A stretch of DNA of 64,000 nucleotides from a bacterium (GCA_963674595.2 CAXXFV010000006.1:160001-224000), one strand, 5' to 3'; positions 19,711 through 58,932 are shown, counted from the first letter of the stretch. Numbers and translations are program-made. The notes: a model not told the origin generated them from the sequence alone.

Positions 19711-19748
19711 TCGAATATATTTTAATTTTTAAAATGAGTTGAGGAAAA

Positions 19749-20828: not shown

Positions 20829-20845
20829 CAATATTTTTATTACTA

Positions 20846-21451: not shown

Positions 21452-21465
21452 AACTGGAGGCATAT

Positions 21466-36653: not shown

Positions 36654-37363
36654 ATGGTCGATAAATACCGGTTATACTGTTGGATATGTGCAATACCTTT
36701 ATGACGAATTTTGATCGTTTTGGTGCTGAGCAGGATTTTTCGAAAACATATCGAAAGATGGGTGGAAAATTATTTGATGATGATACGATAAATAAGCTTA
36801 TTTCAAGATTATATCATGATGTTGTTGATGTTTATGACCATCAAAAAGGTATAGAAAAATTGGCTCCGCTTGATTATTTCATAAGACAGCGGCAGCAAGA
36901 GTTTGAAATTCCTGAACTGGAAATACCATTGGTCCATCAGGTTTTTGCCGAGCATGAGTGCGGGACCGTGCCACAGGAACATGTGCAGGTGATCCAGTCA
37001 TTGAGTAAAACAAACAAACTGGGAATTGTTTCCAACATTTGGGCGGATAGCGGCCGGTTTCGAAATGAGTTGATTAAGTGCGATATTGAGCAATGTTTTG
37101 ATGTGCTTGTTTTTTCTTCTGATATTGAATTTATCAAACCTTCAAAACAAATATTTGACATAACACTGCAACAGATAACCGAGTCTCCCGACCAAATTTT
37201 GTTTGTCGGTGACAGCCTGTCCCGTGATGTTGCCGGGGCACAGGCTGTTGGTTTAAGAACAGCCTGGCTAAGTTATGGCAAAGATTTTTCCGGTAATGGT
37301 TATGTAAAACCGGATTATACTATACGGGCTTTTACTGATTTGCCGAATCATGTTCCGTCATAA
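36654..37363 (+). CDS. HAD-family hydrolase (frameshift near start, ~36668)
   Basis: LLDMCNT, VSN, KP and VGDSLSRDVAGA motifs. Adding one C joins ATG 36654 (MVDKY) to PVILLDM. Confidence 0.8.
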
Positions 37364-39585
37364 TAATGACGTCTTTTTTACGATGATTTGGTGTTACAAT
37401 CAAGTTTTCAACCTGACCATTAATAAATGAACCCTGTATTATGGTTTGTTCCGGGGCATGCAGTTTAAATTCCACGTTCCAGTCTTTGGGCCATGCCGGA
37501 AATAATAATATCTTGCCATCATCTGTCTGCAAAATCATCCTCTGCAATGCAATCATACTAACCGAACCGTGATCCTGGTCCGGTGTCCAGTCATAATTCG
37601 GACCCCAAAAAGCAGGAAACCTGTACCTGTCATCCTTTGTTGTAAAATTTTTTACAACCATAGATTCTGCTTCTGATACCAAGCCCAGTAGGGCCGCTTG
37701 TATCGGCGTCTGGTACCATCCACCGGTGCCTCTATGAATTCGATGCTCAAATGTTTTGCGTGCATAATCTAAATCAGGTTTTTCTGCTCCATATAAACGA
37801 TAGGGGAAAATTGTATATAATTCCGGATTTTCCTGATTATGTTTTGGTCCGGGTATTTCAGCAAATCCTATAACGGTTTCACCATTTACGATCCGCTGCG
37901 GTATCTCCGGCAACTGTTTTTCAAGCTTTTGACACAGTTTTTTAAAATTTTTATCAATCGTTTTGAGTTTGTACAATTTTGGTAAAATAAACCCGAGTCC
38001 GGCTATTTCCGGAGTCGGATTAACGGAATCCCAATAGGTTTCCAATGACTGTCCCGGCCAGATTTTTAACTTGCCGTTTTCATCGCGTTGATAATGCTGG
38101 TCATAAAAAGTGATAATTTCGTTGGCAACCGGTAACAGATATGTTTTTAAAAACTCTTTATTGGCTGTCATATCATAATAATCGAGCATAAGCGTGACAA
38201 GCTCAATACCATCCTGCCAGTAGTAGCGAATGTATTGATTAAGCGTCGTTCCAAGCGGCAAATTTTCTCTTTCCCAGCCGTAATTGGAATCCGTATAGGT
38301 CCCCCCAAAAGTACATGGTTTCCGGGTAGATGGCCCCGTCATGCTGGTAATAAGTTTTAACCCTGTTTTTTGCAAGAGGAAGCGTATTCAGAAACATATC
38401 AAAAAGCGGTTTCATCAGTGAAAAATCACCGCTGTATAACATGGACCAATAGGGGAGACGTGTGTTTTGCCACCAGTAGGGACCGCCCCAGCGACGGAAA
38501 TCGGCATCATAATGCACACCGTTAAAATAAGTGTCGACTGTAAAAATCGTACCGTTGAATTTAATCGGAGAGTTTCCGCGTCCGGCACAGGCATTAATAA
38601 ACCGCTGCAGCAAATAGCCCTGGGTGATTGTTTTAGATTCTTTAAATCCGTCCAAAAATATCCAGCTTTTGTCCCAGAAATTTTTCCAATATGAATAATG
38701 TTGTTCCTTTGTATCCGTTTCATTTAACTGTTTGGCATTATTTACAGCCGTTTCCAGTTTATTATTCCATTCGGTCAGCGTTTCGGTTTGTGATGTCAGG
38801 GCAACTATTTTTAAACAATGTTTTTTACCCAAAGTGGACAAAAGGGTGGAGGCATCTTGTTTTAGAAAATTTTCTCCAAACATGCGGCAGCCGAATGTTC
38901 TGTTCATTAACGGATCAGTGCCTTTGTTCACCCAGTTGTCCAGTCCCTGTAATTCAAGGTTTGCCTGCCAGATCGATCTGGAATTGCGATGACACCAGCC
39001 CAGTTCGTCTTTTTGCAGGTCTAAAAGAGTATCCGGTTCAACAAAAATGGCGTTGGGTCCATTATTTAAACCATAGGCCGAATGTGCTTCATCACCCTTG
39101 ATCTCACGGGGAAAAGTTCTCCATAATTCCACACTGGCTTTAACCTGAACATCTTTGGCCGCATCGGATTCAACATATATAACAGGATGATTGGCATCAA
39201 CCCGAATGGTTATACGGGCGGCGTTTTCCTTTTCACCGAGTTGTATGGTCATTTCACCTTTTGAAACATCGAGCGTTTGCGAAAATTTTGGATCAGAATA
39301 AAAAGGATTGGGCATAATCTGTATACGGACCCGGCCCAGTTTTAACAAACGTGCATTTTCGCTCCAGGCATCGGTTTTTGAAATATAGAATAAAATGTCA
39401 TCATTTTCAGCGACCCAAACATTCAAGCCGATGTCGCCGTTTCCCAGCGGCATCGAATTTAAAGCCGTATTACCAGGAGTGTCCCACGTTACTTGATATT
39501 CTTGTAAAGCTTTGGTTGCATCAAATGCATAAAGTGTTACATGAGGTAAAATAACAATAAATAGGATATAAATGAATTTTCGCAT
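37332..39585 (-). CDS. DUF5703/GH95-like secreted glycoside hydrolase (frameshift at ~38301-38306)
   Basis: Signal peptide MRKFIYILF with GAGGAG RBS; SMPLGNGDIG, KFNG, WWQNTRLPYW, NQENPELY..FPY, PDQDHG and LFPAWP motifs. One extra C in the C6 run splits MYFWG/TYTDSNYGW. Confidence 0.8.
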
Positions 39586-39607
39586 TTTTTTGCTCCTCAT
39601 AATAGTT

Positions 39608-40705
39608 TTATGGATCTGCATGTCCGGTTTTGTAGAGGTGATCTTTAATTTGACAGGCTCTATCATAATTCCCGGACTGGATTATTATTCTGGAAAATCC
39701 GGTTTTAATCATTTCCTGATGTTTTTTATCAACAGGGACCGTCCACTGGACGATGGGAATTTTACTTTCCCTGCATTTTTCATACATATCATCCAACTGG
39801 TAAAATTCTCCCTGATAGGGATTAATGCCTTTTAAATTCTCCAGTGTTAATAACTCGGGATACCATTGGTGGGCCTTGCCGCAAAAGTGTATCCAACCCT
39901 GCCAATTGTTCAGCAGCATTTCATCAAAAGGTTTGATGAGAGTTTTATATTGTTCTCCACTTAGATTAACGGTAGAGTCGTTTCGTATACATAATCCGCC
40001 CAGATAATTCCATGCGCCATCATGTTCGGAAATATCTTTGCCGTCTATTGTGCGGTGCTTTTTGACAATATCAATAATCGTATTACATATAATCGTCATC
40101 AAATCTTTCAACTTTTCCGGCTCATCAAGTACGGCCAGATAGATGCTGGACCCCCAGATAATACTTGCGTTATCAAAAGGTCCCTGAATGTCCAGGCATT
40201 GTGAACCGACAACCTGATTGAGTTTTTCATAGGGAGCCAATGTTTCTCTGTACCAGGCAACCGTTTCCAACGATTTTTGCACCAGTCCGGATGAAATATC
40301 TACCGTACCTTTTTTTAAAATGGAGTCGATTTCTGACTGTGATATTTCCTTGGAAATGGGCAGCTCTGTTTCAAAAACATGGACCGGGCATCTGAACGCC
40401 GATGCTATAATACCGGTACCATAATTGGCACGAATACCATAAAGTCTGTCGTCCTGAAGTTTGGCCCCCATATAAACCTGCTTTAATTCATTTAATAATA
40501 ATTTTTCGCGGTTATAAAAGATTTCATTAAAGTTAAAGCACGGCCATTCATCTTCCGGTATGTTATAATTTATTACTGTTGGAATGTGATCGATTTCCTT
40601 GAACTGAAAAGCATTCTGTTGCAATGAACGTGTTTTTTCAACATGTTCCAGGTCGATCATCTTTTCGAGTTTTTCGAGATAGGGATGTACATTTATAGCT
40701 GTCAT
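39608..40705 (-). CDS. URO-D/MtaA-like TIM-barrel protein #1
   Basis: RANYGTG, DIQGPFD.A..IWG, D...LS.E.Y and IHFCG (HxC) motifs. Confidence 0.72.
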   Translation of the reverse strand: MTAINVHPYLEKLEKMIDLEHVEKTRSLQQNAFQFKEIDHIPTVINYNIPEDEWPCFNFNEIFYNREKLLLNELKQVYMGAKLQDDRLYGIRANYGTGIIASAFRCPVHVFETELPISKEISQSEIDSILKKGTVDISSGLVQKSLETVAWYRETLAPYEKLNQVVGSQCLDIQGPFDNASIIWGSSIYLAVLDEPEKLKDLMTIICNTIIDIVKKHRTIDGKDISEHDGAWNYLGGLCIRNDSTVNLSGEQYKTLIKPFDEMLLNNWQGWIHFCGKAHQWYPELLTLENLKGINPYQGEFYQLDDMYEKCRESKIPIVQWTVPVDKKHQEMIKTGFSRIIIQSGNYDRACQIKDHLYKTGHADP

Positions 40706-43700
40706 TATCGTTCCATTAATAAACGTTTTGCAAAGATGGAAGCAATTGGATTATCATTCGTTCTGCCGGACAATTCGACCTGGCATATTCGCCACATTCC
40801 TTTTTCATCTGTTTTTTCGGCCGCAGCAAAGACCGGTTTCCATCCGGCGGTCCAGTCTCCGTTACCGCTTTTTAAAATTGCTTGCCAGTTTTTCGTATCA
40901 AACGTTGTATGTAATATGGGAGAAGGGCAATCTGTTTTAGGATCATACCAGAACCAAAAGTCATCCGGATCAAAATCTGCTACCAAATGGTGCCCCGTAT
41001 CTCTTGATACAAAATGGCGGTCACCCATGCCGCACACAGAAACCGTAATTTCAGAATCGGCAATTTTATATTCACCGGGGTCGAGTTCCAGAAAGACGGC
41101 TAGTGCCCCGCGACGAACAGCTTTTTCTATTTCTTCTTTTTGTTTATGAAACGTTTGAAAATTATCTATTAATATGATCAAACTTTCTTTGGGTAATTGC
41201 ACCTTGTTCCTGGACAAACCAAGATCATCAAGCAAACGCCAGGCTTTGTCCTTTGATGAAGAACTTGTTATATAAATCGGCAGATTGGATGTGGTCGTGT
41301 CCTGCGGGAGAATATCAACTGTGATATCACCGGTATTGAAACATTTTTCAGAGGAGACCAGACGGGTTGTTATGTACAGTTTTTCACGATCTGAGCAGGC
41401 CGGTGCTTTAAATTTTATATATCCGCAAAACTGACTGCTGTTCACAGGAATTTTTACCTTTTCATTACCGCTGTAAATAACGCTGCCGTTTTTATTTGAT
41501 ATGGAATAGGATAAAAGAACATCTTTTAAAGATTCATTCGTATCGTTGCAGACCCACGTTTCAATTTGGATTTCATCATTTTCAAAATATATCCATTTAT
41601 CGGTGCGCAAACTTGTCATAACCGGTGATAAGGCATTTCGGTAGGTAAAGTAAGCCGGTTTGGGCTGTCGCTCCACATCCATGATTGTTTTCATCCAACC
41701 GGATGGAAAGGCATCGATGAACAAATGAATGGCAAATGAAACCATTCTGCTGTCCCGGCGAAAAGCTTCGGTTACAAGGCGTGTAATACGCACCTGGTGT
41801 TTTTGAGAGGCATGAATCCAGTTTTGTAATGAATACTGGGAATCATACCACATGTAATGAAACCGGCCCGATTGAGCGTTGACAATGCTGTTTGGGGACC
41901 AGTTTTTTTCTTCTGATTCGGATTGCGGAAGCCACTCTTTTGGATAGTATTTGCGCATAACACTTTCGGACTCTAATCCCTCAGAACCGAATTCTCCACA
42001 GGCATAATACCACCCCTTTTTAACAGGCTGCCAGTAACCTTTGTGCAGTTTTCCCAGGTCAAGACCATGACCGTTGTACCAGCCGTTGTAACAATGATTG
42101 TCCGGCAAGCCCGGTCCGGGCGGATCGTAATCCCCGTCAACAGCCTTGATGACACGGTCCGGATTGTTTAGTTTAACAACCAAATCGGCTGCCTCAAAAA
42201 AGTTTTCCAGTTCCTTGCGTAAAAGGTGCCGGTGCGGCTTGTCCATAGCATTGGGAAAGGGCTCATTTATATACGACATTAATACATTACAGGGATGATT
42301 TCGGACCAGTTTTTCCATTTCTTCGGTTTGACGAACAGCTTCGCAAAACTGGTTTTTCCTTAACACGCCGAATAACGGCAAATCCGTTTGCACCATTAAA
42401 CCCAAACGATCACAATATTCGTAAATTTCCGGTTGAACCGGACGTTGTGTCAACCGCAGAAAATTCATATTACAAATTTTTGCCAAGAGAATATCATCGA
42501 TTAATTGAGACCAGTCTTTTTTAATAACACACTGCTGTAAATGACCCATCGTGTTGGCGCCACGTAGCCGAACGGCTTGTTTATTCAGATAAAACATACC
42601 TTTTGGTTCAGACTCTGTATCCTGAGTAAAAGAGCGGATGCCGAACTGCTTTGCAAATGTATCTATTTTCTGTTGATGGTTGTCCAGCAAACTGATATGC
42701 ATCTGATATAGCCAGGGTTCCGTGAGACTCCAGATTTTCGGATTATCGACGGCAACTGTGAATTTATAAGTATTTACTCCCGGTCCAGCCGGCAGGGGTA
42801 TGTTTTTGTCGTCTCTTTTGGCCACATCTCCCAGTCCCGGCACATGGATGCTGGACGGAACAATGTGATTGTCCTGACAAATACATGTTTTAAAATTTTG
42901 TCCGTAAATAGACAGATTGAATTCTATTTCGCGCGGCTGTATATCGCAGTGAAAGATATCGAGCCAGATTTCAATCTGCTTAGCGTCCATCATCGGGCGT
43001 ACAAAAATATCTTTAATAAAAATTCGCGGCCGGGTTTCCAGAAAAACATCCTGATAGATGCCCATTCCCGGAGGACAGTGGTGCCAGCCAACCTGCGGAT
43101 CATCATAACCGCATCCTGTTGCTGCGTATATTTTATCGCCTTCAAACCGTTCTTCGCTTTCCTGGGTACGGCTTCCCATGCAGATGAAATCATTTTCAAC
43201 TTTTATGAGCAGCGAGTTGGCGCCTTTATTAACATAATCGGTAATTTCAAATTCAAAAGGGGCAAAAAATCCTTCATGGGACCCGATAAAGGAACCGTTT
43301 ATAAAGATATGCGCCTTGTAATCCACACCTTTAAAACAGATGAAAAGAGACTGATCTTTTACCGGTTTTTCCTGAACTTGAAACTCTGTTTTATACCACG
43401 TGGCTGCTTTGCCAAGGGGCGGGCCATAATGAGGAATAGTCACTTTTTCCCAGTTACCTTTTCCTTGCAGGATATTGAGAAAATTGTTTTTATCGGTATC
43501 TGTTTCTATTTTCCAGTCAAATTCCTCAAGATTTTTACGGCTTCGCAAGGACTTGTATTCGGGGGCTAGATTTTGTAAAAACGGCTCATATTGTTTTCGA
43601 AATTTTTCCAGTTCCTGTTGTAATTCCTCTGCCGAATCCATTTGTTTCGGGATTTCCTGTTGGACGCATTTATCTCCAGTGGTTAAAGGTAATATTTTAT

Positions 43701-43806
43701 CCGGCAGTTCAGGTGGTTCGGGTGTATGCAGTTCTTTATTTCGCAGTTGTAAACGTTGAGTTGCAATACCGGCAAAAATATCCGGTTGTTTATTTTTATT
43801 AGTCAT
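40705..43806 (-). CDS. Glycoside hydrolase family 2 (no signal peptide)
   Basis: FKGVDY...HEGFFAPFEF, FGIR, LRGAN, YCDRLGLMV, acid/base NEP and nucleophile GEFG motifs. Confidence 0.87.
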   Translation of the reverse strand: MTNKNKQPDIFAGIATQRLQLRNKELHTPEPPELPDKILPLTTGDKCVQQEIPKQMDSAEELQQELEKFRKQYEPFLQNLAPEYKSLRSRKNLEEFDWKIETDTDKNNFLNILQGKGNWEKVTIPHYGPPLGKAATWYKTEFQVQEKPVKDQSLFICFKGVDYKAHIFINGSFIGSHEGFFAPFEFEITDYVNKGANSLLIKVENDFICMGSRTQESEERFEGDKIYAATGCGYDDPQVGWHHCPPGMGIYQDVFLETRPRIFIKDIFVRPMMDAKQIEIWLDIFHCDIQPREIEFNLSIYGQNFKTCICQDNHIVPSSIHVPGLGDVAKRDDKNIPLPAGPGVNTYKFTVAVDNPKIWSLTEPWLYQMHISLLDNHQQKIDTFAKQFGIRSFTQDTESEPKGMFYLNKQAVRLRGANTMGHLQQCVIKKDWSQLIDDILLAKICNMNFLRLTQRPVQPEIYEYCDRLGLMVQTDLPLFGVLRKNQFCEAVRQTEEMEKLVRNHPCNVLMSYINEPFPNAMDKPHRHLLRKELENFFEAADLVVKLNNPDRVIKAVDGDYDPPGPGLPDNHCYNGWYNGHGLDLGKLHKGYWQPVKKGWYYACGEFGSEGLESESVMRKYYPKEWLPQSESEEKNWSPNSIVNAQSGRFHYMWYDSQYSLQNWIHASQKHQVRITRLVTEAFRRDSRMVSFAIHLFIDAFPSGWMKTIMDVERQPKPAYFTYRNALSPVMTSLRTDKWIYFENDEIQIETWVCNDTNESLKDVLLSYSISNKNGSVIYSGNEKVKIPVNSSQFCGYIKFKAPACSDREKLYITTRLVSSEKCFNTGDITVDILPQDTTTSNLPIYITSSSSKDKAWRLLDDLGLSRNKVQLPKESLIILIDNFQTFHKQKEEIEKAVRRGALAVFLELDPGEYKIADSEITVSVCGMGDRHFVSRDTGHHLVADFDPDDFWFWYDPKTDCPSPILHTTFDTKNWQAILKSGNGDWTAGWKPVFAAAEKTDEKGMWRICQVELSGRTNDNPIASIFAKRLLMER

Positions 43807-43809
43807 GAT

Positions 43810-45992
43810 TTAATTTCCCAAAGTCGCAATTACATAAACCAGGAACAGGATAAATATGCCGCCAATGGTAAAAACGATAATTCCTTTTATATCTGTTTTA
43901 TCCAGTTTTTCAAATTCCCAGTTTGAATTTTTAAACATTTTCAGATGATCAAACCTTTGCGGGTTTTTATAGGAAAGTTCAAGTTCTTTTGCATCGATCT
44001 GTTTATCTGCTTGAACAGGTGTTTTCATTTTAACAAAAAACCGGTCCAGTTGTTTTTTATCATCCGGTTTTGATAAAAGGGAAACGATAATAATGACAAG
44101 AAAGGGGAGAAAGGTGCGGATTAAGGCACGAATGGTTTCATTCATGGCATAGGGATTTTTTGACAAATCAAACCCGGCAAAATCAACAAGCACCAATTCA
44201 AGGCTGAGCATGCCTGAGCCGCGAACTGTTCCATTTTCATCCGTTTTTAATCCCTGGTTCCAAAAGATGGACTTTTGCGGCGTGTTATAGGTTTTACTAA
44301 ATTTTTGTCCTGCTTGCAGTTTTTCAGGCTTTTCTCCGTTTGTAATGCCTGCCTGATTCAACGTTTCCCATTTTTCAATGGCTTTGTTACGTTCTTCAAC
44401 ATCAATATCTCTGGCGGTATAGGTCCTGTTAACCGTAATTGGCCGGACGGTTTTGCACAGATATTTATTGGTCTTAACTCCCGGAATAAGCGGGAGCGCA
44501 ACCTGCAAAACAACAAAGAACACGATGGCACTAACCATGGAAACCCAGGCACCTTTTTTATTGGCACGCCTCCATTTTAAACCCATCCAAAAGCTTGCCG
44601 CCATAACAATGTTGAATTCCCATATCATTTTTAACATTTGAAAAACATTGTCAAACTGACTTGCAATGAGCACACCCCCGATAACGACAAACAAACCGAT
44701 GATACGACCGGCGTATATATAAGTTTTTTCACCATAGCTTGGAAAAAACGGACGAAAAAAGTTGTGCGTCAACAGACTGGAAGAGGTGATCATCATCATA
44801 TCTGCTGTAGACATGAGTGCCGCCATTAAACAGGCGATCATTAAACCGACTAGTCCCATACCTACTGAACCTAACAAGTCCCGGCAAGCATAACCCCATA
44901 GATAATCCGGATTTTTTACAACGCTGCCATATAATATCACAAGCAGGAAAGCGCTGACACCCCACAAAAGTGTGGTGGCTCGTTTTATAAAAATACCGGT
45001 CGTAAATCCGAATCGGGCCGTATATTCATCTTTGGCCGAACCGCATGCCGTCAACTGGTTTGCCTGGATGGCAACATTAATTTGACTCATTACCATAATT
45101 GTAATCATATAATACCATGTAAAATCAACCAGTGCCGGTGAGCCCCAAATTTCAAAGGCTGTTTCAGGTAACCTGGAATGGGCCGTTGCGACGATACCTG
45201 CCAATCCCTGACCGCCATAAACACTGTTGATTTTGAATATGGCAAAAGGAAAAAGGAGGAGGGACAGGATGAGGATAAAAATTCCCTGAATCGTATCGGT
45301 TAGGAAGGCCGCTTCGAGTCCTCCCAAGGCGGCATAGCAAATTACAATTAAAGCAACGATCCACATCAACAAATTTTCGTTAATGTATGAAAATTCTTTT
45401 TGTGGATTTTGTATTCTTAGATATTCCAGTCGTTCAAGCTGTTCTGAATTTAGCAACCGGCTGTCAGCTTGTTCCAGTTTTTCCAGTTCAATTGCTTTAT
45501 TGTATTCTTCCCGTTCAGTAACCGTTAGTTGCTCGACCGGTTTTGCGGTGATACCGGTAATGGTTTTAGTCATAGCTGTAAAACCCAGACCGACAACAAT
45601 CATAAAAAATATTGTGCTGATAATAGCGTATAATCCGGCAAGACCTTTGGAATTAAACCGCTCTTCAAAAAAATCACCAAGAGTTAATAACCGCATTCGC
45701 CGATACCAGATTGAAGTGATCCAGTAAATCGGCAGTCCGAACACACTTGTCAGATTTTGCCAGATTCCGGCAATACCGTTACGGGCTACCAGAACGGACA
45801 TGCCCACAGCGCTCTCTGCTGATGTCCCTTGTCCGAATGCAGCAAAAGTTTGCACAAATTTCCAAAACGTCTGCCGCCAAGAAAATAGTCTTCCTGGTTT
45901 TTGATACGACGGGAGGCCCATATACCTATTATTAGAACAACTGCAAAATATAAAATAATCGTAATAACATCTACAAATGGCAAACCAAACAT
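43810..45992 (-). CDS. Sodium:solute symporter family transporter (frameshift at ~45859)
   Basis: EDYFLGGRRFG, LGGLEAAFLTDTIQG, AALMST and WRRAN motifs; one missing base splits RRFG/KFVQTF. Confidence 0.88.
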
Positions 45993-45995
45993 AAT

Positions 45996-47541: not shown

Positions 47542-47560
47542 ATAAATCCTTTCCTGGGTA

Positions 47561-48610
47561 TTAAAAAAAATGATAATATTTTTCAGATAACATGTTCATT
47601 TCATCATGAGAAATATTAGGGCAAATTATCAGCAAGCCTTTGGGACCGACGTTTTTTATCAAATCATCAATCTCAGACGGTTGGGCATAAACCTGTACAG
47701 ATTTCCCATGATCAATTATTTTTTGTAGCAGCCAATACCACTCGGACAGCCTTTCATGCCCGGCCCCGGGCTGCCATTGAACAGCTTTGATTGTCTCCAC
47801 CGATAATATCGAATCAAGATGGGCTATGGCTCCGATACCGTCCAAATGATAAAATGGATAATCAAGAACCGCTGCCAGGTCAATAATACGTGGCAGGCAA
47901 AACGTATCAAACATTTCAGGTGAGATCATGTATGAAAAATCTTCCTGCAAAGGAAAAGTCGTTCCCGTCGCCCAGATTCCGGCCCAGCCAATGCCGCCCT
48001 CATTATTTGCTGATTTTATTATTTTTTGGATTTCCTGAAAAGACTCAATCCAGATGTTTTTTAAATGGTCCATAGCAAGATGGACTTTTTCCGGTTGTGA
48101 AATCATATCGATCAGGAGGTTTTCAGTTCCGTAAAGATTTGCCAAAGTATCTCCCGGCGCTCCATGAGCAAAGGGGGCTACAAAATGATGATTATTGGAA
48201 CTGGCTGCTGACTGTGTTGTCAGATCAATTATTTTTTTATAAAAAAACGAATCTGTATTTAATTCAATATTCATTATTTGGTCGATTGAATCAAAGCAGG
48301 GATGTGCCCAAATTGTTTCCTTGTCAACATATTCAACTTTTGCCCCTAAAGCACAGGCCATGGCGCTGGCTCCGAAATCAATATAATGATAGGGGAGGGC
48401 CTGACCAAAATATGTTGTAGAATCCATGGTTTCAAGGACACGGTTCATGGTACTTTCCGTATCCATCCAAAAGGATTCCAGATCATCATCCTGCGAAGGA
48501 TCGGTTTGATTTTGTGTCCAAGCGATAATGTACGGATATTTTTGATCTTTATGGTCCCACCAGTCAGTAAGTTTTGGAGCAATATTTTTTATTCTTTTTT
48601 TTAAATCCAT
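47561..48610 (-). CDS. URO-D/MtaA-like protein #2 (HLDG/QW.PG subtype)
   Basis: GQALP..DFG, QEDFSYMISPEMF, YHLDG and VQWQPGAG motifs. Confidence 0.75.
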   Translation of the reverse strand: MDLKKRIKNIAPKLTDWWDHKDQKYPYIIAWTQNQTDPSQDDDLESFWMDTESTMNRVLETMDSTTYFGQALPYHYIDFGASAMACALGAKVEYVDKETIWAHPCFDSIDQIMNIELNTDSFFYKKIIDLTTQSAASSNNHHFVAPFAHGAPGDTLANLYGTENLLIDMISQPEKVHLAMDHLKNIWIESFQEIQKIIKSANNEGGIGWAGIWATGTTFPLQEDFSYMISPEMFDTFCLPRIIDLAAVLDYPFYHLDGIGAIAHLDSILSVETIKAVQWQPGAGHERLSEWYWLLQKIIDHGKSVQVYAQPSEIDDLIKNVGPKGLLIICPNISHDEMNMLSEKYYHFF

Positions 48611-48613
48611 AGA

Positions 48614-49712
48614 TCAAATAACCCGGTATTTTTTCAATAATTCAATCGCTTTTTTCATCTGTGAAATATCGGCATCGATCATATAAACAAGGTTGTTGAT
48701 ACTTCCGACCTGGTCCATGAGAATATCCGGTAGTTCAAATGGATCACCCTGATATTGACTGCTGAAAATTTGCGTGAGTTTCCCGGCTTTATTTATTTTT
48801 CGATAAATATCAGCCCAATTTGAAACGTCAGGAGCACCATCTCCAGGGACCCATTGTATCCCCTTTATATCTTTGCATGCAAGAAGAGAATCAAGATGGG
48901 GGAGTTGACCGGCCCCATCCAGATGATAAAAGGCATTATCCAGTCTTTTGGCTGTCTCTGATAGTTCCGGTAAAACAAACGTATCGAACATTTGCGGACT
49001 GATCATATAGCTGAAATCACATTGCAGCATATAAGAGGATTTTTCACTAAAAATGGGCGCCCATGATGAATAGCCCGGGTTAACACGAGAAAGAATTTGA
49101 TTAAATTGCTGGAAAAATTGCCACCACAAATGATGCGCCTGCCAGGTGAGTTTATTTACACGTTCGGAATGATCATATAAATTAAGTAGTAATTTTTCAG
49201 AAGGGAAAAAAAGTAGAAACGATATCCAGATTACCGCCCAGGTCTGTCATACCAAGTTGTACGGAACCTTCCCATCTTTTTATGGCCGCTTTGTAAATGT
49301 TTTCAATTCTTGAGAACCATTTGTTATAAGGATTTATTTTAAATTCAAAAGATTGAATATCCAGGTCTTTGTCAGGATGAAACCAAACCGTATTTTCTCC
49401 GTTTTCAAGCTTTGCGCCAAGAAATGCCGCAATAACACCTGGTCCAAAATTGGGCCAGACATGAGGGAATGCGTCACCTAAATGGATTGTGTGTTCCAGT
49501 TCATTGTGCCAGTTTTCAATAATCAATTCTTCAGGTATGGACAAATCATAAAATGAGGTAAACTCGTAAGAAGGACAATCAGGTTTTAATTTATCGATTG
49601 ACTTTTGGTCTTTTAAACGAATTTGTATTAACGGACGTTCAAGTTCACCCTGCCACCATAAATTCGAATCATTTTTAATTTTATTCCATTTTTCAGAGCT
49701 AAAAAATTTCAT
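48614..49712 (-). CDS. URO-D/MtaA-like protein #3 (HLDG/QW.PG subtype; frameshift at ~49206-49212)
   Basis: GDAFP..NFGPG, TDLGG, QCDFSYMISPQMF, YHLDG and IQWVPG motifs; one extra base in the A7 run. Confidence 0.75.
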
Positions 49713-49719
49713 GCTTTTT

Positions 49720-50864
49720 TTATCCTCCCAATTCCATACATCGTTTTCGGTAATGTAAATAGTCTTTCCATTTTACTTCAGGGGGGACACCGTGGTCACA
49801 TGTTGGTATATATCCCCCTCGTTTTCGCATAAATGGTAATATCCTGTCCAGTTCGCGGTCAATAGCATCCGGGCCTTGTGCGAGTATCCGTTTATCAATG
49901 CCGCCGCTTATAATCAGATCCGGATGGTTTTTGGCTATTTGTACAACATCACAACCGGAAGCTACTTCAAACGGACTCATTACATCCATTCCAAGCCCTT
50001 TACGGTACACATCAATAACAGAAACAGCAAAGCCGTCTGTGTCGATTTGAACATATAAATGCCTTTTTTTATCAAGTTGACGGTCTTGTGTATTTTTTAA
50101 CAGTTGTTGATAATAGGGCATAAGAAATTCATTGATCATGTCAGGCGAAATAAGCGGACCTACGTTGTAACAAATATCTTCAGCCAGATAAAGTTCGTCA
50201 AGAGTGACATATTGCTGATGTTTTGAAATAACAGCATCAGACAATTCCAGCCAGGTTTTCATACAATCATGGATAAGCTTTGGATTGTCGTAAAAGAAAT
50301 ACAACAGATTCTCAGGACCAATCAGGCTGCGCAAATACATATAGCCGCCGATAAGGTTTTGCTGGATCATCAATCCCTGTGATGCTTTTTGCAAAGCTAT
50401 ATTCATACGGTCATGCAGGTTCAAATAACGATTTTCATCCGCCGGGTTTAAACGCCATTTTACGTTCTCCTCCCAGGTGGCCTGATCTTTTACAGGATGG
50501 TCCAGATATTCCGGCATAAATCCCTGGCGTTTTCCGGTAAAGTAGAGAACATATCGCCCGGCTATATCCTGAACAATTTCCTGGTTGCCCCGTGTTTCAA
50601 TGATCTTTTCTTCAAACCCGGAGAGAACGCGGCTTCACACCAACCCAATTCACCCAGTTCATGGTGTCCGGGAGGATCAAAGTGAAAAAAATCATCAAGG
50701 TTAAGGGCAGGGTCCAGGCCCTGTTCATACCAGGTATCCAGACAAAACCAAAGTCCGAATGTTTTATGGAAAAAGGGAGCATCCGGTTTTTTTGCATAAA
50801 TGTCACGTAATTTTACGCCTGAAGGATGCCATTGTTCTCTTGGTGGAAGACTGTTATTTTTCAT
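49720..50864 (-). CDS. URO-D/MtaA-like protein #4 (frameshift at ~50614-50619)
   Basis: R.LIG.ENL...YD.P, AEDICYN.GPLISP, DTDG, PFEVASG, GGIDKR and GGYIPTCDH motifs. One missing base splits SPG/FEEKIIE. Confidence 0.8.
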
Positions 50865-50873
50865 TTTGCCTCG

Positions 50874-53800
50874 TTATTCGCCCGTAACCGGAAGCTGTGT
50901 GCGGTAATTATCAATGTATAATCCTATTTCATCAAAGGGAATTTTTTGAAAATCAGGAACTTTTTCATAAACAACAGAATCGTCTTTCAATTTGAAATCC
51001 ATATTTTCTGCATCGATAAAACCGGGATCCTCTTTGGTGACATAGTTGTTTTTAAATTTAAATTGTGTGTTTAATCCTACCAGCCGATATGTTTCATCAT
51101 ATTTTACAGAAACATTATTTTCAAAAGTATTTCTGGCCGGCAGCATGCCATAGTAAATATCACTGCCGGGTATAAGGTCCAGCCAGTTTACCAGATTCGG
51201 ATATGCTGACCGATAGGGCTCTTTTTTTATATCAATATGTTTTGTTAATCTGTTTCGATAAATACCGTCGTCGCCAAAATAATATTCTTTTGAATCCAGG
51301 GCAAAGTCCCACCACATGGATTTTTGCTGAAGTACCGGACCATAGCCTTCGATAAAGATATTATTCCGAACGGTTATATCCTGTCCGCCATTACTGTAGA
51401 CGGTGCCGAAAGAACCGGCTTTGTAAAATACGTTTCCTTCTACAAGACCATCACAGGCCGCATCATCAAAATAGACGCACATTGTCCATTTGCGATCAAC
51501 ACGCCCGACATGATGGAAAAAATTATAACGGATGACGTTACCCCTGTCACTTGGATTTCTGCCGATATACCATGCAGAGGCATCGTTTGAATTGAGCGTA
51601 ACATGGTGAATGTGGTTGTATTCAAAAAGGTGCTCATTACCGGCCACCATAATTGCCTGCAGCGCCGCATTAAACACTTCACAATGAGAAACACGATTAC
51701 CACATCCATATACTTTGATTCCGGGCCACTGGGACCTGTTTCTTAACTGAAAGTCATAAACTCTGCAATTTTCTACAAAACAGTTTCCGGGAACCAGCTC
51801 TTTTTTGCTGCCGCCGTCCAATAAAATACCGCCGCTGCCGGTATTATAAACATCACAACTGAGAATACCGTGATTCTTGCCGGGATGCCGGTCCCAAGTC
51901 GTATTCATATAAGAGTAAGACGTTAAGCTGCCTATTTCTCTGGAAACAGGAACACCGGTATAATCGACACCGGTAATGTGCGGAAAAGTTTGCATTGCCC
52001 CTTTTCCCATCATAATACCGATTGTGCCGCAATTTCGAATCGTGCAACCGGCAATCAGGTTATTCTGTCCGCCTTCAATATAGATACCCATTCCCCTGGT
52101 CACCTGGAAAAATACATTTTCAAAATTGACATACGAGGCGTTATCAAGGACAAGCATGGGTGTTTCCAGTTCCGAAACTTCAATCTCTGCATTTTCAAAG
52201 TTTTCAGGCGGCCATATATAAAGCATGCCCGTATTTTTGTCAACATACCATTCACCCGGACTGTCAATTTCAGCCAGAATGTTTAACGCCACATATTGTT
52301 GATAGGGAGCTCCGCTTCCCAAACCATACATGTGCGGTGTGGTCAGTTTTACCTGTCCAGCCTCTGGATTAATCCATTCAACTTTAATTTTATCATCCGC
52401 ATATCCCCATTTAAAAGTGCCCTGGAACCATATATCATCGATTCCGACCCACTTTTCATGGCGTTTGTCCGTGTATTCAAAAATACCGCCGCGTATATTT
52501 TCATAATCTCCCCAACGGGGAATGGAACCGGTATCAATAATTTTACCAATTAATATGGCGCTGTTATTCGGATACCGGGCGAGGGGCATTTTTTCGTTGT
52601 TTATAAATACTTCCAATGGCGCTGTAACAACCGGTAAACCATGACCGAATTTTTTATGCTCTCCGAAATTCGAAATTCCGAAACTTTTCAAATTGACCTG
52701 GTAAAGGTTATTTTGAGCCTCAGTAGAAATTATTTGTTTTAACACATTATTGTCAGATACTTTTTCAAAAGCATTTGTCGGTATTTTTTGTCCGCCGGAA
52801 ATATAGACTTTTTCACCTGGCCAGGCACTGTATATGATGGGAGAGTCTTTCGTGCCGGAATCTTTCTCCAGTAATTCAAAGGATTGTTTTAAAGGATAAT
52901 AACCTCCGCGCAACCATACCGTTAAACTGTCTCGGTGTTGTGCCGGTATAGTTCGAATGGCGTCCCTGGCTTTTTCCAGAGATTTAAACGGTTCTGAAAA
53001 AGTGCCGGGATTATTATCATTACCTTCGGGTGAAATGAAAAATTCACTGGCATAATGTATATCATCTTCCGGCAAGGTGGTACGAAATTCATCTCTATAG
53101 AGTCCCATTTCTTCAAATGGTATTTTTTGAAATTCAGGGATCTTTTTGTAAACAATCGAATTGTCTCTAAGCTGAAAATCCATGGTTTCATAATTGACAA
53201 AACCGGGGTCCTGATTGGTTATATAATTGTTTTTAAAATCAAATTGTGCATGTTCACCTACCAGGCGAAACGTTTCGCCGTATTTATAAATAACATTGTT
53301 TTCAAAAAGATTGTTTTTAGGCCGCATTCCTACATAGGTGACCCCGTCATCCATTAAATCCAGCCAGTTAACGAGTTCCGGATAGGTTGTGCTGTAAGGA
53401 GGTTTTGTTATATCCAGCGATTCCATCAGCCTGGTGCGATAAACACTATTTTCACCGAAATAATAATCAATTTGATACTGTCCAAAATCATACCACATGG
53501 ATTTTAATGTTAGTGCAGGCCCATAGCCTTCAATAAGAATATTATTTCTAACCGTTATATCATGACCGGCATTGCTGTAAATCGTTCCAAAGGATCCGAC
53601 TTTATAAAGAATGTTTCCTTCAACAAGTCCGCCTCCGGCCGCATCATCAAAATAGATACCCATGGTCCATTCCCGGTCCGGGTTCCCGCAATGATGAAAA
53701 AAGTTGTTACGAATAACTAAACCACGATCACTGGGGTCCCGTCCGTTATACCAGGGTGAGGTGTCATTTGAATTTAGTGTCAAATGATGGAGATGATTGT

Positions 53801-55286
53801 ATTCAAAAACATGTTCATTACCATGAACGTATATTCCCTGAAAGTCACTGTTGAAAATTTCATTATGCCGGATTTTGTTACCGCATCCGTCAACAATAAT
53901 ACCGGCCCATAAAAATTTATTACGACGGTTGTAATCATGGACCCGGCAGTTTTCCACAAGGCAATTTCCATTTATCAGATTTTTTTTATCTCCGCCGCTG
54001 AGGTAAATCCCGCCGCAACCGGTATTATAAACATCACAACTGATGATCCAATGATTATTGCCGCCGTCCCTGTCCCATGTTGTGTATTTGTATAATTGAG
54101 GTATTAAAGTACCGATTGTTCGTGAAACAGGTACACCGTCATAATCATCATGGGTAATATGTGGAAAGGTTTGTTTGGCTCCCTTTCCCATTAAAATACC
54201 AATCGTCCCCATATTACGGATCGTACATCCGGCAATGGTATTATAACCGCCACCTTCGATATAGATTCCCATATCGCGGGCATTCTCAAAAATCAGTCCC
54301 TGTATATTTACAAAAGAGACATGATCAAGGACAAACATAGGTTCATCAACAATGGAAATAGAAATTTTAGAATTTGAAATGTCTTCCGGCGGCCAGAAAT
54401 ACAACATTCCGGTATTTTTATCAACATACCATTCGCCGGGTGAATCCAGTTCTTCAAGAATGTTAAGAGCATAATAATGACGATAATTTTTGCCTGTGTC
54501 AATCCCATACATGTGCGGTGTGGCTAGCTTGACAAGGTGTTTATCCGGATCAATCCAATCAACTTTAATTTTGTCATCTGCATAACCCCATTTAAATGTT
54601 CCCTGAAACCACACATCATCCAATCCCTGCCATTTTTCATGACGGTCATCTGTGTATTCAAAAATGCCGCCGCGAATATTTTCATAATCTTTAATTCTTG
54701 GAATAGAACCGGTATCATGCACTTTACCGATCAGCATATAACCATCGTTGGGATAACGGGCAAGTGTCATCACCTCGTTGTTAAAATAAAGCTCCATAGG
54801 CGCTGTAACAACCGGCAGTGCGTGCCCGTATTGCTGGTGTTTGCCGAAATTTGTTACTCCCAGCTTTTTGAGATTTATCTCCAATATATGAGGCCGGGCA
54901 TTTTCTTCCAGCCTTTTTAATATTTTTTTGTCTGTTACCTGAGAAAATAAGGACGGGTTCAGGTCCATACCGCCGCTGATAATTACCTTTTCGTCCGGAT
55001 AATTTCGATAAACAACAGGAAAGCTGTCAACTCCGGAGTCCTGTTCGAGTAATTCAAATGATTTGGATAAATTATAGGTTCCTTCACGCAGCCAAACATT
55101 AACATCGGTTTCAGATGAGAAAGGTTTTTCGGCACGAATCGCATCTCGTGCTTTTTCAAGGGTGGCAAATGGTTCTTCAAACGTTCCCGGGTTATCGTCT
55201 GAACCATTGGGAGAGATGTAATAATCAAGTGAATAGGAGGTGGACGTCAAAAAAAAACAAACAAGAAATAGATATATTTTTTTCAT
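50874..55286 (-). CDS. Secreted right-handed beta-helix protein with two tandem GH141-like modules
   Basis: Signal peptide MKKIYLF; two copies of SP.G.D.NPGT..EPF..LEKARDAIR / ARYPN / E.DSPGEWY / YFDDAA / DPGF...DF.L. Confidence 0.82.
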   Translation of the reverse strand: MKKIYLFLVCFFLTSTSYSLDYYISPNGSDDNPGTFEEPFATLEKARDAIRAEKPFSSETDVNVWLREGTYNLSKSFELLEQDSGVDSFPVVYRNYPDEKVIISGGMDLNPSLFSQVTDKKILKRLEENARPHILEINLKKLGVTNFGKHQQYGHALPVVTAPMELYFNNEVMTLARYPNDGYMLIGKVHDTGSIPRIKDYENIRGGIFEYTDDRHEKWQGLDDVWFQGTFKWGYADDKIKVDWIDPDKHLVKLATPHMYGIDTGKNYRHYYALNILEELDSPGEWYVDKNTGMLYFWPPEDISNSKISISIVDEPMFVLDHVSFVNIQGLIFENARDMGIYIEGGGYNTIAGCTIRNMGTIGILMGKGAKQTFPHITHDDYDGVPVSRTIGTLIPQLYKYTTWDRDGGNNHWIISCDVYNTGCGGIYLSGGDKKNLINGNCLVENCRVHDYNRRNKFLWAGIIVDGCGNKIRHNEIFNSDFQGIYVHGNEHVFEYNHLHHLTLNSNDTSPWYNGRDPSDRGLVIRNNFFHHCGNPDREWTMGIYFDDAAGGGLVEGNILYKVGSFGTIYSNAGHDITVRNNILIEGYGPALTLKSMWYDFGQYQIDYYFGENSVYRTRLMESLDITKPPYSTTYPELVNWLDLMDDGVTYVGMRPKNNLFENNVIYKYGETFRLVGEHAQFDFKNNYITNQDPGFVNYETMDFQLRDNSIVYKKIPEFQKIPFEEMGLYRDEFRTTLPEDDIHYASEFFISPEGNDNNPGTFSEPFKSLEKARDAIRTIPAQHRDSLTVWLRGGYYPLKQSFELLEKDSGTKDSPIIYSAWPGEKVYISGGQKIPTNAFEKVSDNNVLKQIISTEAQNNLYQVNLKSFGISNFGEHKKFGHGLPVVTAPLEVFINNEKMPLARYPNNSAILIGKIIDTGSIPRWGDYENIRGGIFEYTDKRHEKWVGIDDIWFQGTFKWGYADDKIKVEWINPEAGQVKLTTPHMYGLGSGAPYQQYVALNILAEIDSPGEWYVDKNTGMLYIWPPENFENAEIEVSELETPMLVLDNASYVNFENVFFQVTRGMGIYIEGGQNNLIAGCTIRNCGTIGIMMGKGAMQTFPHITGVDYTGVPVSREIGSLTSYSYMNTTWDRHPGKNHGILSCDVYNTGSGGILLDGGSKKELVPGNCFVENCRVYDFQLRNRSQWPGIKVYGCGNRVSHCEVFNAALQAIMVAGNEHLFEYNHIHHVTLNSNDASAWYIGRNPSDRGNVIRYNFFHHVGRVDRKWTMCVYFDDAACDGLVEGNVFYKAGSFGTVYSNGGQDITVRNNIFIEGYGPVLQQKSMWWDFALDSKEYYFGDDGIYRNRLTKHIDIKKEPYRSAYPNLVNWLDLIPGSDIYYGMLPARNTFENNVSVKYDETYRLVGLNTQFKFKNNYVTKEDPGFIDAENMDFKLKDDSVVYEKVPDFQKIPFDEIGLYIDNYRTQLPVTGE
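50880..55230 (-). repeat. Intragenic tandem duplication (~2.18 kb unit)
   Basis: Matching DNA blocks (e.g. ACTTTAATTTT at 52381 and 54562) are offset by 2181 nt (727 codons). Confidence 0.85.
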
Positions 55287-55305
55287 GATATTCCTCAAGT
55301 TAGAT

Positions 55306-56334
55306 TCAAATCAGGGGTGTATAATGTCCAAAGTTTCTGAATGCCCGGCACATAACTCTTAGTTTATCCTGGTCTAAACTAATTGCCTCGGGTGTTGTAT
55401 AGGCCATACTGACCAATCCTCCGTTAAACCCGCCGAGTGTTTTAACCATTTTTTGAACATAATTTTCTATATCCTTAGCAGAACCGTGGACCATTATATT
55501 TTGTATATCAACCGGGCACCAAAAGGCAAGTTTGCCTCCTGCTTTGTCAGCCAGATTTTCGAGTCCCATATTTTGCTGCTGGTCCATTTGCACAACGTTT
55601 AATCCTGCATTAATCAAATCAGGCAACAAGTCTATAATATAGCCACAGGAATGCATCCATACATCCATACCAAGAGAATGGGCAAGTGTCCAGTTTTCCC
55701 TATAGTGAGGAATGAAAAACTCGTTAATGAGTTCTCTGGAAATCATTAACCGGTTTTGCAAACCCCAGTCGTCATAAGCCATAACACCATCGCAACCCAG
55801 TCCGGCGAGCAGTTTTATGGATTGCCGCTGCTGTTCGGCAAACCGGGCAATCAATTCTTTTAAAAAATTCGGATGTTCATAATAACTCATGAACATATTT
55901 TCCAGTCCGATGATGTTATGAATGCCCTCATTCAAAGAACTGAATCCCATGACTCCCAAAACATATTTTGGATTATCGCTGTTTTGGTTTTCCTGTATGG
56001 CTTGTTTTGTATGAATATAATAAGACGGATTATTCCGGTCCGGAAATTTATATAAATGGTGCTGCGTTAAATCGCTGATAGGATAAGACTTTGCCTGGCC
56101 CATGTCTGTTTCGTTTCCTGCCCGGCGTTCCCATGTAACTCCCCAGGCATCTATGCGCTGGTCGATTTGACCTTTGTTTTTCCACGATTGAATATCTGCC
56201 GGACCAAGGTTTTTCCCGGTTGTCCAGGGAGCTGCCCAAAGTACATCGTTTGGTTGACCATCGGGTAAATAATGGGGGACATGGTCGGGATTTTCAAAGT
56301 GGATAGCGCGTTTAACTCGCTCTCGTGATGTCAT
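55306..56334 (-). CDS. URO-D/MtaA/CmuA-like protein #5
   Basis: MTSRERV..AI.F..PD.VP, DAWG, GLEN, YDDWG.Q, MHSCG (HxC) and FWCPVDIQ motifs. Confidence 0.85.
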   Translation of the reverse strand: MTSRERVKRAIHFENPDHVPHYLPDGQPNDVLWAAPWTTGKNLGPADIQSWKNKGQIDQRIDAWGVTWERRAGNETDMGQAKSYPISDLTQHHLYKFPDRNNPSYYIHTKQAIQENQNSDNPKYVLGVMGFSSLNEGIHNIIGLENMFMSYYEHPNFLKELIARFAEQQRQSIKLLAGLGCDGVMAYDDWGLQNRLMISRELINEFFIPHYRENWTLAHSLGMDVWMHSCGYIIDLLPDLINAGLNVVQMDQQQNMGLENLADKAGGKLAFWCPVDIQNIMVHGSAKDIENYVQKMVKTLGGFNGGLVSMAYTTPEAISLDQDKLRVMCRAFRNFGHYTPLI

Positions 56335-56460
56335 GTCGTTTGTATTGGTAATATTTAGATTTCTATTGATTTTAGGTGTATATCAGATAATCATTTTTCA
56401 GGATATTTCCAAGTGTTTTCTATAGAAGTTTGTTGATGGATAATATTATGAAAAGAATTT

Positions 56461-58724: not shown

Positions 58725-58932
58725 TATTTTTCTCCATGTATATTGTAGTTAATTTACAAAATTATCAAAATATATCAAAACCGAAACAACAGGAGATTGT
58801 TTGTTTATCCGAATTATAAGATTAATTATGTTTTTATCCATAAAATTCTGATTATGTATTTACTTTTTTCTGTAAAATTAATATGTTTAATTGAATCAAT
58901 GGTTAATGAATTCCTAAAACAGAGGTGTCATC

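Follow-up and report, generated by a model that had tools for sequence, protein, structure and literature searches.

What do five proteins of the uroporphyrinogen decarboxylase (URO-D)/MtaA fold do among the genes of a glycan-degrading cluster? This question is raised by ten minus-strand genes at 37332-56334 of a 64,000-nucleotide stretch of bacterial DNA (GCA_963674595.2, CAXXFV010000006.1:160001-224000), which is called the window hereafter and from whose first letter all positions are counted. An earlier note, made from the sequence, had read these genes as a glycan-utilisation operon with a candidate B12-dependent system for sugar O-demethylation. The locus is one conserved glycan-utilisation operon, and its five URO-D/MtaA-fold proteins (UroD1 to UroD5) are probably corrinoid-protein-dependent methyltransferases. 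The full reading, in which O-methyl sugars are the methyl donors, is put forward more tentatively, as a proposal that could well go either way. The B12-dependent part of the earlier reading is supported in silico by the fold of the proteins, their distinction from HemE, the partner genes of the genome, gene linkage elsewhere and the predicted docking of UroD2 on a small corrinoid protein, but not by the position of this corrinoid protein, which is encoded outside the cluster.

The host genome (G000) comprises 6.6 Mb in 37 contigs, with an estimated completeness of 97.6%, and the window corresponds to C6:160001-224000 of this genome. Since close homologues are named "candidate division KSB1" or "Zhuqueibacterota" in their sources, the organism is probably an anaerobic bacterium of the candidate division KSB1 lineage. 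A scan of open reading frames (ORFs) with Pfam returned the ten genes in the order that had been described, with equally small gaps between them. The Pfam scan, which covered 47 ORFs of the window, turned up no haem-pathway or SusC/SusD family, again as announced. The ten genes, which include several glycoside hydrolases (GH) and a sodium:solute symporter (SSS), are given below in their minus-strand order, followed by the corrinoid protein.

55306..56334, minus strand: UroD5, 342 aa, cytoplasmic; Pfam URO-D 39.9 bits
50874..55298, minus strand: tandem double GH141-like beta-helix protein, 1474 aa, secreted; Beta_helix 113 bits, GH141_M 40.4 bits
49720..50864, minus strand: UroD4; URO-D 43.6 bits on the C-terminal piece; frame broken at 50619
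48614..49712, minus strand: UroD3, a UroD2 paralogue with no Pfam match; frame broken at 49206
47561..48610, minus strand: UroD2, 349 aa; URO-D 25.8 bits, barely above the cut-off of 23.9
45996..~47553, minus strand: GH57-like protein, cytoplasmic; Glyco_hydro_57 75.6 bits; frame broken at 47360
43810..~46004, minus strand: sodium:solute symporter, ~730 aa; SSF 87 bits; frame broken near its start, at 45858-45861
40705..43806, minus strand: GH2, 1033 aa, cytoplasmic; GH2 N-terminal, Ig and TIM domains plus Mannosidase_ig
39608..40705, minus strand: UroD1, 365 aa; no Pfam match, fold taken from the AlphaFold2 model
37332..39666, minus strand: DUF5703_N protein, secreted; DUF5703_N 262 bits, with a weak GH95-like C-terminal part; frame broken at 38301
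19078..19710, plus strand: small corrinoid protein, 210 aa; B12-binding 99.9 bits, B12-binding_2 76.1 bits, D99-x-H101-x-x-G104

The URO-D/MtaA-like character claimed for all five proteins could be established by different routes, namely Pfam matches for UroD2, UroD4 and UroD5, structure models for UroD1 and UroD2, and paralogy for UroD3 (phmmer E-value (E) 1e-35 to UroD2). The AlphaFold2 models of UroD1 (pLDDT 95.8, pTM 0.92) and UroD2 (pLDDT 94.6, pTM 0.92) retrieve the same top PDB match in Foldseek, the MtaA of Methanosarcina mazei (4ay7_A), with E 3.6e-9 and TM scores of 0.62/0.66 for UroD1, and E 1.8e-8 and 0.62/0.63 for UroD2. About twenty uroporphyrinogen decarboxylase entries of the PDB rank next for both models (Foldseek probability 1.00, TM about 0.6). 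The barrel can be superposed on UROD or MtaA, which places these proteins in the URO-D/MetE-like (beta/alpha)8 superfamily. In PMC10418091, the UroD superfamily is described as including HemE, MetE, the epoxyalkane:coenzyme M (CoM) transferase and corrinoid-dependent O-, S- and halogen-demethylases. The combined hidden Markov model (HMM) and structure search that had been suggested as a check has thus delivered an MtaA-type fold, while the curated methyltransferase models were not passed. Homologues of UroD1 (n=119, 46-63% identity) come from Chloroflexota, Armatimonadota, Planctomycetota and KSB1-type genomes, a few of them with a precomputed URO-D match, and those of UroD5 (n=578 at E<=1e-10) are spread over many phyla. 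The best hit of a single-sequence PDB search with UroD5 (E 0.24) was not significant. The ESM Atlas clusters nearest to UroD2 are URO-D-like or hypothetical, one of them with the automatic name "Trimethylamine corrinoid protein 2 family", which is to be taken as a lead only.

Each family (UroD1, UroD2/3, UroD4 and UroD5) keeps its own conserved candidate metal ligands at the strand ends or barrel mouth. These can be compared with H-x-C...C, a zinc-site motif of the UroD-superfamily corrinoid methyltransferases that is not universal among them. The UroD5 family has an invariant H228-S-C230-G and a near-invariant C273, so that H228/C230/C273 are the candidate ligands, and the UroD1 family an invariant H273-F-C275-G with a near-invariant C239 (C239/H273/C275). 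Q222, D224, H255-L-D257-G and H264 are invariant in the UroD2 family, and D224/H255/D257/H264 are the candidates for UroD2/3. In the UroD4 family, DxDG is found in place of HxC/HxD, plus a D-H pair near the C-terminus (D276, D278, D358 and H359). Zinc is present in some O-demethylases and not in others (PMC13222342).

The small corrinoid protein announced at 19078-19710 is indeed encoded there, as seen from its B12-binding domains and its DxHxxG motif. It also carries SALL and GGAP motifs, and it scores 203 bits against TIGR02370, for which the cut-off is 215. In structure prediction, its complex with UroD2 reaches an ipSAE of 0.85, versus 0.00 for the best of three controls. Of 80 solved complexes, 58 attain 0.85, as do 2 of 110 mismatched pairs, a calibration that is only rough since the alignments used for the complex (48 rows for UroD2, 17 rows for the corrinoid protein) were self-made; the model contains no cofactor. 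The contacts agree to at least 89% between runs, and the pLDDT of the partners is at least 89. In the predicted interface, the loops on the cofactor side of the corrinoid protein (DxHxxG, SALL and GGAP) meet the barrel mouth next to H255/D257/H264. This interface includes 8 of the 18 invariant or near-invariant UroD2 residues (W101, E163, L166, M228, S230, G258, G282 and G284). UroD2 is thus predicted to dock on the corrinoid protein. What the model has learned in general about B12 domains docked on TIM barrels might conceivably contribute to the score, though the UroD2 family has no sequence relative in the PDB.

Direct linkage between URO-D-fold genes and a corrinoid protein gene can be found in other genomes. 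Locus L052 comes from an Anaerolineae genome in which the UroD1 module is present as well; one strand there encodes in turn the corrinoid protein, a UroD3-like protein, a further URO-D protein, two unknown genes and a GH116. The UroD3 homologue, which adjoins the corrinoid protein, is 400 aa long and scores 237 bits, with no Pfam match. On a metagenome contig (L131), the order is GH127, aminotransferase, UroD2-like, URO-D, a 432-aa protein, a URO-D fragment, nucleoside-hydrolase-like, UroD4-like and corrinoid protein, the latter with 259 bits to that of the window; L128 is a near-twin with the same order. These compact strings, each with a corrinoid protein, several URO-D-fold genes and a GH gene, occupy L052:5-8568 and L131:3846-15974. 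A quick maximum-likelihood tree of 62 rows was built, from which four frameshifted window fragments and three short fragments of contig C16 were left out, the orthologues of UroD3 and UroD4 from a relative (G026) replacing the frameshifted window fragments. In this tree, the corrinoid-linked members of L052 and L131 group with UroD2/3 in a clade of SH-aLRT 98 and with UroD4 in one of 99, and UroD1 forms a long, unplaced branch. In three of seven corrinoid-protein loci of distant genomes, a gene homologous to the second RACo of G000 adjoins that of the corrinoid protein.

Co-occurrence across genomes was another check proposed in the earlier note. A stand-alone corrinoid protein (191-214 bits) is encoded in 10 of 10 tested genomes with a UroD1 orthologue, G187 being a duplicate of G011. 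Within an Anaerolineae-class sample, it was found in 13 of 13 genomes with a UroD1-like gene versus 116 of 151 overall, the related genomes not being independent. At such a base rate, the Anaerolineae figure is only mildly informative.

A corrinoid activator and a methyl acceptor, whose lack the earlier note had named as a ground for giving up its reading, are both represented in the genome. Two RACo_C_ter activators (343 and 258 bits) are encoded, one of them adjoining acetyl-CoA synthase and CFeSP genes on contig C14, together with MetH, MTHFR and CobS; a RACo-type activator gene is also located at C8:283367-285199. CbiC and MttB were not found in G000; since CbiC was not found, cobamides are probably salvaged or remodelled by the host. 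Nine B12-binding matches are present in the genome, of which only that of the window is a small corrinoid protein (frame of ~219 aa), the rest being radical-SAM-sized or MetH.

Several other regions of the genome deserve mention in this respect. The acetyl-CoA synthase/CFeSP and RACo region at C14:120485-134048 contains by eye CODH, two CooC-like genes, a MetE-like gene of 371 aa and one homocysteine-methyltransferase-like gene, and an MtaA-like URO-D paralogue lies at C14:139089-140105, 5 kb from the acetyl-CoA synthase cluster. Another canonical paralogue is encoded at C14:65219-66220. At C15:280882-281877 (L147:1929-6996), a URO-D paralogue is located directly upstream of DUF3795, cobT, cobS, a cobC-like phosphatase and DUF4405, all on one strand, with a B12-binding radical SAM gene nearby. 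The top URO-D match of the genome (206 bits) is a 543-aa open frame at C16:687324-688952, a type conserved across many relatives at a length of 540-555 aa; the next gene in G000 seems by eye to be CobW-like, and in family-f1 relatives the 543-aa type clusters with a second corrinoid protein type, which G000 lacks. A fusion of URO-D and B12 domains was also looked for and rejected: none of three long corrinoid-domain frames (L169-L171) has a URO-D part, and in L169 the frame of an ornithine cyclodeaminase continues into that of the corrinoid protein.

How well does the cluster hold together as a unit? It is syntenic as a whole in relatives, and parts of it travel much further. Among 27 loci of UroD1 orthologues, 13 contain an orthologous GH2 and 10 a UroD5 orthologue (at least 291 bits), both counts being lower bounds since loci are cut by contig ends; two of the loci belong to the relatives G026 and G028. 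The loci are drawn from genomes of Chloroflexota/Anaerolineae, of the KSB1 type, of Armatimonadota and of other groups. Because these three recur together across phyla, the cytoplasmic GH2 with two HxC-type URO-D-fold proteins, UroD1 and UroD5, is, on the evidence of gene neighbourhoods, the evolutionary core of the module. UroD2, UroD3, UroD4, the GH57-like enzyme and the symporter are, by the same evidence, a KSB1-type extension (L021, L034, L062 and L064).

Five of the ten genes (SSS, GH57-like, UroD3, UroD4 and DUF5703) span two frames in the sequence as given, a point absent from the earlier note, the breaks being located partly at homopolymers, such as the T7 run at 49206 in UroD3. The intact G026 orthologues of the split genes align across the frame changes (the GH57 orthologue has 542 aa). 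The window was compared with Logan contigs (not raw reads) of four public runs from four studies, at low depths of 2-7. A single-base indel was found in every covering run at 38301, 45858/45861, 47360, 49206 and 50619: one base is deleted in the DUF5703 gene (38301, 3/3 covering runs) and in the UroD3 gene (49206, 4/4), a G is inserted in the UroD4 gene (50619, 3/3), and indels are seen in the SSS gene (45858-45861, 4/4) and in the GH57-like gene (47360, 4/4). One run (X1) has zero other differences from the window in the listed pieces. As one-base indels occur in all covering runs at all five sites, the breaks are assembly errors, and all ten cluster genes are intact in the organism. Five indel errors have thus accumulated within 19 kb, and comparable errors are possible in other frames of this assembly; a genome-wide count of overlapping frames was tried as a frameshift measure and was too noisy to be used.

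The glycan enzymes could be named with varying precision. The GH141-like protein shows the beta-helix with insertion domain, GH141_M being matched in two stretches above its cut-off of 27. Both of its halves align to a single 748-aa orthologue in G026, with 59% and 56% identity, so that two complete copies are fused in tandem here where G026 has one. The last gene had been called DUF5703/GH95-like: its DUF5703_N assignment is secure, whereas the GH95 catalytic domain, at 20.7 bits, stays below the cut-off of 27. The symporter scores 118 bits with TIGR00813 and is 67% identical to its G026 orthologue. Signal-peptide-like N-termini were recognised by eye only in the GH141-like and DUF5703 proteins, a pattern that fits the topology proposed in the earlier note, with secreted hydrolases on the one hand and cytoplasmic GH2, GH57-like and URO-D proteins on the other.

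Put together, these elements would make up the following pathway. The secreted GH141-like beta-helix enzyme and the DUF5703 protein would cut the polysaccharide, the sodium:solute symporter would import the glycan fragments, and the cytoplasmic GH2 and GH57-like enzymes would trim them. The five cytoplasmic URO-D/MtaA-fold proteins, from four families, would act as corrinoid-protein-dependent methyltransferases. They would dock on the single small corrinoid protein of the genome, the shared methyl carrier, which a RACo/RamA-type activator would keep in the Co(I) state, and would move the methyl groups of methylated imported sugars onto cobalt. One or more of the URO-D proteins, or else a canonical MtaA-like paralogue encoded outside the cluster, would then pass the methyl group to tetrahydrofolate, from which it would enter the acetyl-CoA synthase pathway. 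In this scheme, the O-methyl sugar donor, the way in which the five proteins share the work, the nature of the metal and what becomes of the methyl group are inferred.

A number of observations weigh against such a pathway, and many of them would suit a different explanation, namely that the five proteins are metal-dependent, B12-independent sugar-modifying enzymes (lyases, decarboxylases, isomerases or thiol-dependent alkyl transferases) to which the corrinoid protein is unrelated. The corrinoid protein gene is absent from the cluster and lies 18 kb from it, among unrelated genes. It is a conserved single-copy gene, accompanied in 7 of 8 loci of relatives by genes for a GHMP kinase and a DegT aminotransferase rather than for methyltransferases. 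In the window itself (19078-22689), the corrinoid protein is followed by the very highly conserved GHMP kinase (phmmer 588-667 bits between relatives), and then by a HAD phosphatase and/or DegT depending on the locus; the pairing with the kinase, seen in those 7 of 8 loci, does not extend to the Anaerolineae loci. Elsewhere, no corrinoid protein is found within 10 kb of UroD1 relatives (0 of 27 loci, many of them cut by contig ends), and it is missing from 78 of 80 UroD2-family metagenome loci, many of those contigs being short; the two loci that have it probably stem from one organism.

Numbers raise a similar difficulty. G000 contains 41 URO-D matches (48 ORF pieces by iterative phmmer) for one small corrinoid protein, and in the 31 related genomes the URO-D matches range from 2 to 41 (25-37 in genomes with the syntenic cluster), while the corrinoid protein is present in 31 of 31. 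Its presence, the same in all relatives whatever the URO-D count, does not track the URO-D expansion. Since stand-alone corrinoid proteins are common in Anaerolineae (77%), co-occurrence in that class is weak evidence. When Pfam families were counted for 110 co-directional genes next to the paralogues of 35 other loci, the result was heterogeneous: 188 families, with SSF counted 4 times, MFS 3 times and GH38 twice, and with neither a corrinoid protein nor a RACo among the 25 families listed. This census neither supports nor excludes a general link of the URO-D paralogues with carbohydrate-active enzymes (CAZymes).

The sequence comparisons likewise weigh against the pathway or leave room for B12-independent enzymes. 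UroD5 reaches only E 2.8e-6 and 26.8 bits against the NCBIfam MtaA/CmuA models, versus a cut-off of 235.4 bits (TIGR01463 mtaA_cmuA); UroD1 to UroD4 have no score with the NCBIfam methyltransferase models, and no curated family model is passed by any of the five. PDB searches with the UroD1, UroD2 and UroD5 profiles gave no significant match (best E 0.11, none and 0.066, respectively). The PDB relatives of the GH2 (top relative only 78 bits), GH141-like and GH57-like proteins, the latter distant from solved GH57 structures, are too remote to name a substrate or glycan. The conserved ligand sets differ among the families, and the predicted complex expresses the confidence of a model run on our own alignments without the cofactor. 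To our knowledge, no characterised case exists in which Co(I) attacks an aliphatic sugar methyl ether.

HemE, MetE and the epoxyalkane:CoM transferase are B12-independent members of the same superfamily, according to PMC10418091. Against B12-independent enzymes stand the contrast between the UroD2-corrinoid protein complex and its controls (0.85 versus 0.00), the UroD2/3 and UroD4 clade-mates that share one string with a corrinoid protein, the paralogue beside cobT-cobS-cobC, the stand-alone corrinoid protein in all ten tested UroD1-orthologue genomes, and the first rank of MtaA in Foldseek for both models. On balance, this explanation is considered unlikely, although it is the strongest competitor of the corrinoid-dependent one.

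It is rather improbable, and less probable than B12-independent chemistry, that the five are corrinoid methyltransferases acting on non-sugar donors, such as methoxylated aromatic aglycones of imported glycosides, methanol, or methyl-sulfur or methyl-nitrogen groups. Phenolate leaving groups have an established chemistry, and the characterised UroD-type methyltransferase I (MT I) enzymes all act on aryl methyl ethers, methyl halides or thiols, according to PMC13222342 and PMC10418091. The cytoplasmic GH2, GH116 and GH127 enzymes beside such genes could equally deglycosylate phenolic glycosides. The cluster itself argues otherwise, with its secreted polysaccharide-type enzymes (GH141-like and DUF5703) and its sugar-type symporter, and aromatic-catabolic genes were not seen among the window ORFs scanned with Pfam. 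Nor do the profiles show significant similarity to CdmB, the solved MT I (E 0.29 for the UroD1 profile A1 against structure 9rui).

HemE identity can be dealt with quickly. The N-terminal substrate-binding motif of HemE, MRQAGR, which was confirmed in 3 of 3 HemE genes of relatives, occurs neither in UroD1, UroD2 or UroD5 nor in the orthologues of UroD3 and UroD4 from G026, and thus in none of the five families. The idea that the five are uroporphyrinogen decarboxylases of tetrapyrrole synthesis, suggested only by the Pfam family name and by names in public records, is virtually ruled out by this lack, by partial URO-D scores of 26-44 bits versus about 415 bits for the true HemE of the relatives G008, G015 and G010, by a separate HemE clade (support 100 in the quick tree) that contains none of the five, by a top URO-D match in the genome of only 206 bits and of the 543-aa fused type, by the 41 URO-D copies and by CbiC not being found. 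The clustering with true HemE and the retention of HemE residues, which the earlier note had named as grounds for giving up its reading, were therefore not seen, either by motif or in the tree.

The corrinoid-dependent reading being retained as the favoured one, the surroundings of the cluster can be described briefly. Two further genes lie upstream on the same strand, both named from Pfam:

56461..57744, minus strand: GH4
57741..58724, minus strand: BadF/BcrAD-type ATPase, sugar-kinase-like

Both are outside the syntenic cluster in G026, and they may be on the cluster transcript in this genome only. A promoter-like site (10-of-12 match) at 58840-58813 is weak evidence; a promoter and terminator scan of 39600-59200 gave counts close to those of shuffled sequence and was uninformative. 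Elsewhere in the window, 25693-33804 encodes a 2703-aa protein with an N-terminal GDSL esterase, fn3, four Big_1 domains and a T9SS Por_Secre_tail.

Compared with known systems, the proposed one would work much like the three-component O-demethylases and dehalogenases of acetogens and Methermicoccus (MtvB/OdmB/VdmB/MtoB/CdmB; MtvA/OdmD/MtqA; RACE/RamA). UroD-like TIM-barrel proteins, a small DxHxxG corrinoid protein, a RACo-type activator in the genome, a tetrahydrofolate/Wood-Ljungdahl sink, many paralogues per genome and variable zinc are common to both. In PMC13222342, CdmB (MT I) is described as a TIM barrel with human UroD as nearest structural homologue, and one acetogen as having ~20 MT I and 13 methyltransferase II (MT II) paralogues. 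The differences are no less clear. Significant sequence similarity is missing, the corrinoid protein and the activator are encoded outside the cluster, and one corrinoid protein would have to serve 41 URO-D matches. The genes sit in glycoside-hydrolase/transporter operons of non-acetogenic glycan degraders, and the proposed substrate, an aliphatic sugar methyl ether, is without precedent. The analogy is one of function: by sequence, the proposed system cannot be assigned to any curated family, and it differs in its gene organisation and CAZyme context.

The MtaA/MtbA methylcobamide:CoM methyltransferases (4ay7) provide the top structural match of the UroD1 and UroD2 models, the weak MtaA/CmuA HMM matches of UroD5, and the HxC at a barrel-strand end that is shared by UroD1 and UroD5. 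Identity is however only 12-13%, scores are far under the family cut-offs, the host is a bacterium and not a methanogen, and HxC gives way to HxD...H in UroD2/3 and to DxD in UroD4. A sharing of the corrinoid protein is reportedly known from Eubacterium limosum, where several MT I enzymes of the MttB family are said to rely on the same corrinoid protein, MtqC, and on the same MT II, MtqA. There as here, a single corrinoid protein and a single MT II would work with several substrate-specific MT I enzymes encoded elsewhere, but the substrates there are quaternary amines and the MT I enzymes are members of the MttB superfamily.

Algal, plant and microbial polysaccharides commonly contain methyl-etherified sugars, for example 6-O-methylgalactose, 2-O-methylfucose, 2-O-methylxylose, 4-O-methylglucuronate and 3-O-methyl hexoses. 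In marine Bacteroidota, a cytochrome P450 demethylates 6-O-methyl-D-galactose; it is O2-dependent, releases formaldehyde and is encoded in a glycan-utilisation locus. The removal of sugar methyl ethers during polysaccharide catabolism, from within such a locus, would be common to that enzyme and to the system proposed here, whose proteins belong to an unrelated family. We know of no characterised removal of sugar methyl ethers other than this oxygen-requiring one. Literature searches, with supplements outside their scope, returned no description of corrinoid-dependent sugar demethylation or of URO-D expansions in glycan loci.

On a larger scale, the 25-41 URO-D paralogues per genome in some KSB1 lineages, with their orthologues in Anaerolineae, Armatimonadota, Planctomycetota and others, might represent a large, so far unrecognised radiation of corrinoid-dependent glycan O-demethylases that cleave aliphatic sugar methyl ethers. 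These would share one housekeeping corrinoid protein and activator, with Co(I) attack aided by a barrel-mouth metal and the methyl groups feeding folate/acetyl-CoA-synthase metabolism; this generalisation is more doubtful than the reading of the cluster itself. The GH2-UroD1-UroD5 module and the corrinoid-containing clusters L052 and L131 are small gene sets suited to functional study. If the proposal is true, the P450 sugar demethylases would have a counterpart that works without oxygen, and sediments and digesters a further source of one-carbon (C1) units; it would also explain how methylated glycans are mineralised in anoxic sediments, guts and digesters. Polysaccharide breakdown would be coupled with C1 and acetogenic metabolism as well as with the need for vitamin B12, and a function would be given to hundreds of "uroporphyrinogen decarboxylase family" or hypothetical proteins encoded beside CAZymes.

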